Origin: a virus
Taxonomy: Duplodnaviria; Caudoviricetes
IMG/VR virus record: IMGVR_UViG_3300022562_001605
Location: 11,278 to 75,277 of that record
DNA length: 64,000 nt
Strand: one strand, 5' to 3'
Shown: in pieces, positions 51,717-52,474 of the stretch
Layout: each line of letters opens with the position of its first letter
Numbering within the stretch: the first letter of the stretch is position 1
The notes under the pieces: model-generated
Database searches by the model: none
The model's input: only the letters and a program-made list of their open reading frames with translations
Told to the model about the DNA's origin: nothing
Made by a program: the position numbers and the translations under genes

Positions 51717-51970
51717 GACTATTGGGTTACAAGGCGTCACCCCCGGATGGGCTTACGCAGCTAAGCGAAGTTCCTCATCGTAAAATGCGTCGTTTGCATT
51801 TATGGTTTTTATGCCATTTTCGGTGGTCATCTGCCGTATCATCCACTTACCATTCCTTGCCCCGTCGAATCCAGTTCATCCCCAAAATATCGTCAAATTG
51901 CCAAAAATTGGTGGAGATGGGGGTGTCGAAACCCCGTCCGCAACTTGTACTAAGTTCGCTTCATATGATA
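51717..51970 (-). ncRNA. ssrA: circularly permuted (two-piece) tmRNA
   Basis: acceptor piece ending ...CATCTCCACCA (51909) precedes GGGGATG 5' end (51883); G3-U70 pair; tag ORF ANDAFYDEELRLAA* at 51797-51753. Confidence 0.92.
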
Positions 51971-51979
51971 ATAAATTAT

Positions 51980-52474
51980 TTATTCTTCACACCACCATTC
52001 TTCAAAAGGTTTATAATATTCTTCAATTATTTCAATTTCCCCTTCAAAATTAGGAAGATCCTTACACTGCAATCCCCCCACGTTATAAGATAGGGTTATG
52101 TGTGGTTTATATTTGTCAAAATCGTATGTTGCCCCGTGTTCATTCATTAAAAAGTTGTGTCGTTTGACCAGTTCTGGACATTTATATTTTAAAACGAGGC
52201 ACATATTAACAGTCCCGTCTTTGGTTGGCTGCGATGGCCATTTTACGAATTTGGTAAAATTACCGATCAGCGGGTTTTCAAATGTACCCGCCGGTTCATA
52301 GTCTGGAAGATGCTTTCTACTGAATAAAAGTGTGGTGTGAAGACTATCCGTTCTAACCCTATTGGGAATATTATTATCCTTAATATATTTTCTAATTGCT
52401 TTTTTGGTTTTTTCGCTAAACTTTACACCTGCATATGTACCCGTTTCTTTACTAATCGTTTCCATAATTATCAT
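51980..52474 (-). CDS. acb1: 2H phosphoesterase, T4 57B / anti-CBASS Acb1 homolog
   Basis: GTYAGVKFS, LHTTLLFSR, GATYDFDKYKPHITLSYNVG, EYYKP..W align with T4 57B. Confidence 0.85.
   Translation of the reverse strand: MIIMETISKETGTYAGVKFSEKTKKAIRKYIKDNNIPNRVRTDSLHTTLLFSRKHLPDYEPAGTFENPLIGNFTKFVKWPSQPTKDGTVNMCLVLKYKCPELVKRHNFLMNEHGATYDFDKYKPHITLSYNVGGLQCKDLPNFEGEIEIIEEYYKPFEEWWCEE

Follow-up and report, generated by a model that had tools for sequence, protein, structure and literature searches.

The 64,000-nucleotide (nt) stretch of viral DNA considered here, referred to below as the window (positions 11,278 to 75,277 of IMG/VR record IMGVR_UViG_3300022562_001605), carries a circularly permuted gene for transfer-messenger RNA (tmRNA), the RNA which releases ribosomes that have stalled and labels their incomplete products for degradation. 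The gene, recognized by sequence reading and by an Rfam match, lies within positions 52019-51687 of the minus strand. Its 3′ half (T-arm, 3′ strand of the acceptor stem, and CCA) is located upstream of its 5′ half (5′ strand of the acceptor stem, D-loop analogue, and tag). Judged from the sequence, the segment 51970-51681 is, with a probability of about 0.9, a functional two-piece ssrA of an uncultured jumbo myovirus related to the phages XacN1, Xoo-sp13, and RsoM2USA. By analogy, we infer that the RNA is alanylated, processed into two pieces, and used together with SmpB. The original prediction, a reading of the letters which had placed a two-piece tmRNA in a phage genome, is borne out: the gene is genuinely permuted and phage genes flank it on both sides. 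It is a new example, in a phage, of a documented type of two-piece tmRNA.

Architecture of the Permuted Gene

Coordinates are positions in the window unless another contig or record is named, and the tmRNA gene and the neighbours listed further below are all encoded on the minus strand. The acceptor and coding pieces were delimited by the alignment to RF04321 and by pair counts on related sequences (45 for the acceptor piece, which was also covered by a survey of T-arms), and the spacer by sequence reading.

51977..51984, minus: AATAAATA box, a 7/8 match to the T4 late-promoter consensus TATAAATA
51909..51970, minus: acceptor piece, about 62 nt
51970-51966 and 51945-51939, minus: 3′ strands of helix 2, within the acceptor piece
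51920..51935, minus: non-canonical T-arm of 16 nt, GGGGU-UUCGAC-ACCCC
51919-51913, minus: 3′ strand of the acceptor stem, CAUCUCC, within the acceptor piece
51912, minus: discriminator A73, in the acceptor piece
51911-51909, minus: encoded CCA, which ends the acceptor piece
51884..51908, minus: AT-rich spacer (intervening segment), 25 nt
51717..51883, minus: coding piece
51883-51877, minus: 5′ strand of the acceptor stem, GGGGAUG, which opens the coding piece
within 51717..51883, minus: D-loop analogue, AACUGGAUUCGA
51864-51858 and 51841-51837, minus: 5′ strands of helix 2, coding piece
51836-51821, minus: hairpin upstream of the tag, coding piece
51753..51797, minus: tag frame GCA...UAA, 14 codons and a stop, encoding ANDAFYDEELRLAA*
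51717..51744, minus: 3′ pseudoknot, with stem S1 GGGG/CCUU, a minimal 3-bp stem S2 GAC/GUC, and the conserved loop GUAACCCAAUA
51681..51714, minus: intrinsic terminator, a 12-bp hairpin (51714-51687) and a U run

The acceptor stem consists of 7 bp (GGGGAUG/CAUCUCC) followed by ACCA, and it contains the alanine identity pair G3:U70 together with A73. Sequence and comparison show that the tRNA-like domain can form only when the upstream acceptor piece pairs with the downstream coding piece. The latter begins with GGGGAUG at 51883 and continues with AACUGGAUUCGAC. The tag is preceded by the resume context AUAAAU-GCA, and the encoded peptide has the features of a tmRNA tag, namely a GCN resume codon, a hydrophobic ...AA end, and a stop. 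Just upstream of the resume codon, where a pseudoknot (PK1) is expected, a hairpin (CGGC/ACCG) was modelled; three of its pairs are good in the window, and across the clade it is 85% paired. The 3′ pseudoknot motif aligns to the consensus of the betaproteobacterial Rfam model as well. The spacer between the two pieces is presumably discarded when the precursor is cut.

These elements agree base for base with those named in the original prediction (the promoter-like box, the CCA end at 51909, the 25-nt spacer, G1 at 51883, the resume context, the tag, and the terminator). The 7-bp acceptor stem with its alanine determinants is present as described, and the pseudoknot and strong terminator which it had proposed downstream of the tag were both identified (51744-51717 and 51714-51687).

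The Rfam covariance models, a check which the same prediction had proposed, support this architecture. RF04321 (tmRNA_permuted) matches over positions 1-213 of 213 with 125.2 bits (gathering threshold 47; E 4.8e-24), well outside what chance would give. RF01850 (beta_tmRNA) matches over positions 1-331 of 331 with 94.8 bits against 84, which is a small margin. The alpha model (RF01849) scores below the beta model here and was suppressed as a lower-scoring match of the same clan. With such lower-scoring overlapping clan matches set aside, no further Rfam family was found in the region at E<=1.

Comparative Evidence from the ANDAFY Clade

Relatives in IMG/VR were obtained via DNA patterns. The clade used here is defined by one such pattern, composed of the resume context, the codons for ANDAFY, and the next base. 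It matches 63 viral contigs. In each of them the tag is complete and resembles ANDAFYGE(D/E)RLAA, or ANDAFY...(L/I)AA overall, and ARAGORN calls a permuted tmRNA in 55 of the 63. The same kind of scan over one genome per species of 185,579 bacterial and archaeal species, which demanded the exact TAAAT-GCN resume context and would miss ANDAFY tags in other contexts, returned no real tmRNA with an ANDAFY tag; its three matches are chance matches inside longer open reading frames (ORFs). The closest relative of the window (contig L153) has the tag ANDAYYGEDLRLAA, and L002 has ANDSNYYEAPMALAA.

Alignment of 45 non-redundant members with MAFFT, with pairs counted against the structure of the window gene, gives the pattern expected of a conserved RNA fold. 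The acceptor stem is paired at 99.4%, where G1-C72 and G2-C71 are essentially invariant, G3:U70 is found in 45/45 members, and pairs 4-6 carry double-sided changes in about half of the sequences. Helix 2a (93.7% paired) and outer helix 2 (92.1%) show compensatory changes in every pair. The covariation score reaches 0.403, compared with 0.146 in shuffles (0/500 reach 0.403) and <=0.10 when the 3′ partner is slid. The pseudoknot stems were examined sequence by sequence. In the relatives, S2 comprises 7-8 bp and occurs as at least 10 different complementary sequence pairs, e.g., GGGAGUG/CACUCCC, GCCGACUG/CAGUCGGC, and GGAACUGC/GCAGUUCC. The codons of the tag vary synonymously while the peptide is kept, which points to selection on the peptide. 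Taken as sequence patterns, these data indicate an RNA under selection for its tRNA-like shape, its alanine identity, and the coding of its tag.

Among clade members (L038-L099), the segment between CCA and G1 has a length of 13-159 nt, and in most cases a conserved helix, GAAACAC...GUGUUUC with UGAU after it, closes this segment. The spacer of the window is without this helix. The longest spacer (L053) begins with an ATG-led open frame, and some spacers of the clade may carry small genes.

Variation of the T-Arm

The T-arm of the window is supported as non-canonical, as had been proposed for its loop. Compared with the reference of 5 bp and a 7-nt UUCGANN loop, it has 16 nt rather than 17, and two readings are possible: 5 bp closing the 6-nt loop UUCGAC, and 4 bp closing an 8-nt loop. 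The first reading is favoured by a compensatory change in the fifth pair of contig L017 (GGGGC-UUCGAA-GCCCC). The usual arm is found in 34/44 clade members, the identical 16-nt arm in L002, and one-base variants in L009, L076, L090, and L099. This distribution in related sequences indicates that the short variant is heritable.

A GGCAGNA-type T-loop is present in three clade members (L038, L044, and L057) and in L153. It is similar to the loop GGCGGUA of an alphaproteobacterial gene from Halocynthiibacter (L100), which scores 300 bits on RF01849. The phage tmRNAs with GGCAGNA loops group by tag and body with the members that have UUCGA loops. The occurrence of alpha-type loops in clade members and L153 means that the subtype features are mosaic in phage genes, and it points to T-arms which are mosaic or convergent among phage two-piece tmRNAs.

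Evidence against a Functional tmRNA and Limits of Detection

Several observations weigh against a functional two-piece tmRNA. The beta_tmRNA score is only 11 bits above the cut-off, and ARAGORN does not call the gene, or any other tmRNA in the window, so that the ARAGORN check proposed earlier turned out negative. The T-arm falls short of the usual length by one base, only a weak hairpin precedes the tag, helix 2a contains a G.G mismatch and an A.A end, and S2 of the pseudoknot has only 3 bp. This reduced S2, GAC/GUC followed by the terminator, is a layout common to L079 and a few others. Folding the gene as one strand gave no significant minimum free energy structure (z = -1.6), as would be expected of a pseudoknotted, two-stranded RNA. 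Finally, neither SmpB nor ClpX was found among the 113 ORFs of the window that were scanned, 103 of them against Pfam (no match to PF01668), in a window that covers 64 kb of a larger genome; SmpB would thus have to come from the host or from a phage copy encoded elsewhere.

The short T-arm was considered as the cause of the ARAGORN miss and rejected: the program calls the tmRNA of L002, which has the identical arm, and those of L009, L076, and L099, which have one-base variants. The tmRNA of L153 is likewise missed. Since ARAGORN finds nothing in the window, standard annotation with this program would omit the gene. Pipelines based on ARAGORN thus miss bona fide tmRNA genes such as those of the window and L153, and the use of covariance models (RF04321) is advisable in the annotation of phage genomes.

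Other searches were of limited use for this locus. The window gene and the more typical gene of L009 gave no blastn match in 50,697 phage records, where short RNA genes fall below BLAST significance, and the tmRNA genes of isolate phages were detected by covariance model only. Single-protein searches of IMG/VR with the neighbouring ClpP and Acb1 proteins returned distant matches or none, and a literature search for the tag strings returned noise only. Two antisense ORFs of 123 and 76 amino acids (aa) on the plus strand have no PHROG family, and neither has the microprotein described below; a protein-coding reading of the locus was rejected.

Predicted Late Promoter and Proposed Mechanism

The AATAAATA box shares bases with the stop codon of the Acb1 gene, the upstream neighbour, and about 7 nt separate it from the first helix of the tmRNA. 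The late-type element of the original prediction gains comparative support, as L153 (GATAAATA) and L002 (a perfect TATAAATA) each have a box in the corresponding place. The motif WATAAATA occurs at 21 sites in the window, 19/21 of them on the minus, coding strand and mostly 20-40 nt ahead of the start of a gene. With about 30 sites expected, the motif shows no overall enrichment. No sigma-70-like site was found. The best reading of these sites is a putative T4-type late promoter for the tmRNA gene.

The mechanism proposed here is drawn from the established biology of Caulobacter-type two-piece tmRNA. A single precursor would be transcribed from a promoter just upstream, probably the T4-late-type box. 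RNase P would cut at G1 of the coding piece, and the tRNA 3′-end enzymes would trim the acceptor piece to CCA, so that the spacer is lost and the two RNAs remain base-paired. The two-RNA complex would be charged by alanyl-tRNA synthetase and delivered to stalled ribosomes by SmpB and EF-Tu. Translation would then resume on GCA and append ANDAFYDEELRLAA, the ...LAA end of which should direct the tagged product to a ClpXP-type protease. The most likely role of such an RNA is keeping ribosomes free during infection. It may also feed a ClpP-like protease of the phage, encoded downstream.

Genomic Neighbourhood and the Link to ClpP

The window derives from a large myovirus, with genes for rIIA, rIIB, clamp loader, tail fibres, helicase, primase, ThyA, DHFR, a Thg1-like enzyme, and PhoH. 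The neighbours of the tmRNA gene and the homologues of the microprotein are the following.

51980..52474, minus: Acb1-type 2H phosphodiesterase, the upstream neighbour (PF23474, 115.9 bits)
51504..51635, minus: 43-aa single-pass membrane microprotein with the motif IGWNFPQPAYAK, its own AATAAATA box (51673-51666), and a Shine-Dalgarno sequence
50822..51430, minus: ClpP-family serine protease, 202 aa (PF00574, 55.6 bits; phrog_1827, 2.6e-59)
L002, 610-726: homologue of the microprotein
L153, about 3934-4152, minus: homologue of the microprotein

The ClpP gene is located about 250 nt downstream of the tmRNA gene, with the microprotein gene, followed by a terminator at 51499-51478, between them. 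The catalytic Ser and His of the protein align with those of solved ClpPs (PDB). In L153, a late-type box, a permuted tmRNA (94 bits), a homologous microprotein, and a ClpP 69% identical to that of the window occur in the same order, and L002 keeps this order with a ClpP which is 45% identical. The microprotein belongs to a family of about 40 aa with the invariant core IGWN(F/I/L)PQPA, present in 19 IMG/VR contigs including L142-L159, some of them over 200 kb; the family has no match among the PHROG families. A position beside ClpP, with the tmRNA on the other side, is limited to the window, L002, and L153. In the group of L055, L051, and L040 and in L079, a ClpP-like gene and a primase follow the tmRNA, so that a ClpP-like gene is found downstream of tmRNA in four lineages. 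In L055/L051 and L079, a homologue of Acb1 is encoded upstream of the tmRNA, at a distance of 1.4-4 kb. Most other loci of the ANDAFY clade have PhoH nearby and no ClpP.

The presence of a phage ClpP in the neighbourhood suggests a tag-and-degrade module run by the phage. In this model, which concerns the biological role and is compatible with a true tmRNA, ANDAFY...RLAA acts as a virus-specific degron read preferentially by the phage ClpP-like protease, with the help of the ClpX of the host or of another adaptor, and the module is expressed late together with the 43-aa microprotein. It is consistent with the order of genes kept in the window, L153, and L002, with the succession of tmRNA and ClpP in the L055 group and L079, with the catalytic residues of the window ClpP, and with a tag pattern which is present in 63 viral contigs and, chance matches aside, was not found in the scanned species genomes. 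However, the adjacency is confined to one sub-lineage, and neither a ClpX nor an adaptor was seen in the window. The tmRNA, the microprotein, and possibly ClpP form separate transcription units with two terminators between them. The bacterial scan is also restricted to one resume context, and ClpP-family proteins of phages are often prohead proteases, families of which are among the weaker matches here. The model is therefore possible but doubtful as an account of the role. Its strongest form, where the ANDAFY...(R)LAA clade is confined to viruses and a late tmRNA-microprotein-ClpP module both writes and reads the phage's own degradation tag, is more doubtful still. If the link to ClpP and the virus-only tag hold, phages may run a private pathway of tagging and degradation late in infection.

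Known Two-Piece tmRNAs and the Origin of the Gene

The two-piece form is known from phages. It was described in the Methylophilales phage Melnitz (Buchholz et al. 2022, PMC9004378), and the same work counts 53 two-piece forms among 133 unique tmRNAs of phage isolates, mostly aquatic phages, and lists the tmRNA of XacN1 as 'Permuted' in its Table S1. Huge phages were reported to carry tmRNAs and SmpB (PMC7162821). The nearest cultured phages, identified by the helicase (42-46% identity), are Xanthomonas phages Xoo-sp13 and XacN1, Stenotrophomonas phages CM1 and RAS14, and Ralstonia phage RsoM2USA, all with genomes of 300-385 kb. Three of them carry permuted genes.

XacN1, AP018399.1, 37231-37530 and 356026-356325: permuted tmRNA in two copies near opposite ends of the record (RF04321, 123.2 bits; L137, L139)
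Xoo-sp13, MN047793.1, 39030-39373: permuted tmRNA (RF04321, 65.7 bits; L138)
RsoM2USA, MG752970.1, 331728-331923, minus: permuted tmRNA (RF04321, 96.7 bits; beta model, 92 bits; L033/L034)

Their tags read ANDSRYAVAA in RsoM2USA, ANANTFDYALAA in XacN1, and probably DNVDSFDFAMAA in Xoo-sp13. In the GenBank records of RsoM2USA and XacN1, the tmRNA genes fall into unannotated gaps, and the RsoM2USA paper does not mention a tmRNA. The premise that phage tmRNAs are of the one-piece type, from which the original prediction had started, is thus not sustained. The novelty claimed there also falls away, as closely related permuted phage tmRNAs, which it had said would remove that novelty, are already documented.

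The genes of XacN1, Melnitz, and the pelagimyophages resemble that of the window in the permuted order within a lytic T4-like or jumbo myovirus, in the full tRNA-like domain with an intact tag, and in the location among genes of nucleotide metabolism and tRNA-related genes. The differences lie in the details. The tags of XacN1 and RsoM2USA differ from ANDAFYDEELRLAA, and the spacer has 25 nt in the window compared with 114-147 nt in XacN1 and Xoo-sp13. Melnitz has a glutamine riboswitch, whereas none was found by Rfam in the window region, and its promoter is early, whereas that of the window is predicted to be of the late type. The link to ClpP is not reported for XacN1, Melnitz, or the pelagimyophages, and, unlike XacN1-type phage tmRNAs, the window gene is missed by ARAGORN. 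One-piece phage tmRNAs (cluster C mycobacteriophages, phage G) are phage-borne ssrA genes as well, with a presumed role in ribosome rescue during infection; unlike the window gene, they have an unpermuted order and four pseudoknots and are found by ARAGORN.

The bacterial two-piece tmRNAs are similar in layout. The betaproteobacterial form, reportedly described by Sharkady and Williams in 2004, corresponds to RF01850, which the window gene matches over the full length above the gathering score. Its layout is that of the window gene as well: the acceptor piece comes first, then the spacer and the coding piece, a single hairpin stands ahead of the tag, and a 3′ pseudoknot whose loop is CCUUGUAAC..AA is followed by a terminator. 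The consensus tag of the model is ANDEHFAMAA, and the tag of the window has 14 aa; unlike the betaproteobacterial gene, that of the window is phage-borne and has close relatives with alpha-type T-loops. The alphaproteobacterial form (RF01849), which Keiler et al. are said to have described in Caulobacter in 2000, has the same permutation and the same presumed processing. Its 3′ pseudoknot is of the type found in the window (GGGG...CCUGGCAACAGAA in the Halocynthiibacter gene), and its tags of 12-14 aa also start with AND. Its T-loop, GGCNGNA, is not used in the window.

This similarity allows the gene to be considered as a recent capture from a host, in which case it would name a two-piece host lineage, e.g., certain Betaproteobacteria. 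The best subtype model is indeed RF01850, and the tag of the window starts with AND-, a start typical of Proteobacteria. Nevertheless, the beta model, 331 positions long, gives a low score of 94.8 bits compared with the 300 bits of a true alphaproteobacterial gene on its own model, and permuted forms are also present in related phages with Xanthomonas and Ralstonia hosts. The T-loop of L153, GGCAG, is of the alpha type and resembles that of the Halocynthiibacter gene, so that the subtype features are mosaic, and no bacterial genome matched the tag pattern with its exact resume context. Melnitz shows that phage and host types of tmRNA can disagree (PMC9004378). A chromosomal origin of the beta subtype likewise does not fit a gene which lies among phage genes, has no bacterial tag match, and has relatives mixing alpha- and beta-type features. 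Recent capture is accordingly very improbable.

The two origins offered in the original prediction, capture as a clue to the host or independent permutation in a phage, both fare poorly. The host clue is weak, since the form recurs in related Xanthomonas and Ralstonia jumbo phages and the types of Melnitz and its host disagree. An independent permutation is unlikely because the permuted models already known match the gene from end to end and because it has the 3′ pseudoknot of alpha- and beta-type genes. The gene is best seen as a permuted gene inherited within the phage lineage, with no recent capture from a host. As this gene type appears to be inherited within phages, its subtype is unfit for naming the host. 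The gene is a further indication that an own ribosome-rescue RNA is an inherited trait of large myoviruses from water and soil.

A search of 151 gammaproteobacterial genomes with RF04321 gave one match above the cut-off (genome G108). It lies on a 2.7-kb contig (L102, contig C167) which also carries a tRNA in a bacterial genome bin, and it has an alpha-like T-loop; this tmRNA is probably phage-derived.

Decoy and Artefact

A decoy or inhibitor, which competes with the tmRNA of the host for SmpB or ribosomes and performs no productive tagging, would fit the deviations of the window RNA in the T-arm and helix 2a. A precedent is the tmRNA of mycobacteriophage DS6A, lacking a coding sequence, which is cited in PMC11915505 as inhibiting the endogenous tmRNA in Escherichia coli. 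In the window, however, the tag frame is intact, with the resume codon, 14 codons, and the stop, and so are G3:U70 and ACCA. The amino acids of the tag are conserved in the 63 contigs while the synonymous positions vary. There is thus little to recommend a decoy. An assembly artefact or a decaying, functionless pseudogene, which the metagenome-type sequence and the silence of ARAGORN might suggest, can practically be dismissed, because the same permuted order and co-varying helices recur in dozens of independent contigs and in the genomes of three cultured relatives, which rules out misassembly, and all functional elements are intact.

Other Genes of the Window

Two further observations concern translation and the relatives of the phage. 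A Thg1-like tRNA-His guanylyltransferase (55961-56698, minus; PF04446, phrog_4717) is encoded 4 kb from the tmRNA, although not a single tRNA gene is called by ARAGORN in the 64 kb of the window. A complete prkA(yeaG)-yeaH-spoVR(ycgB) operon is present at 58613-63439 (minus). Its PrkA shares 55-61% identity with the copies of RsoM2USA and of three genomes (635-642 kb) from uncultured phages; with a gene from the record named Enterobacter phage LAU1, the identity is 68% (sequences compared for the operon: L029, L030, L031, and L032).

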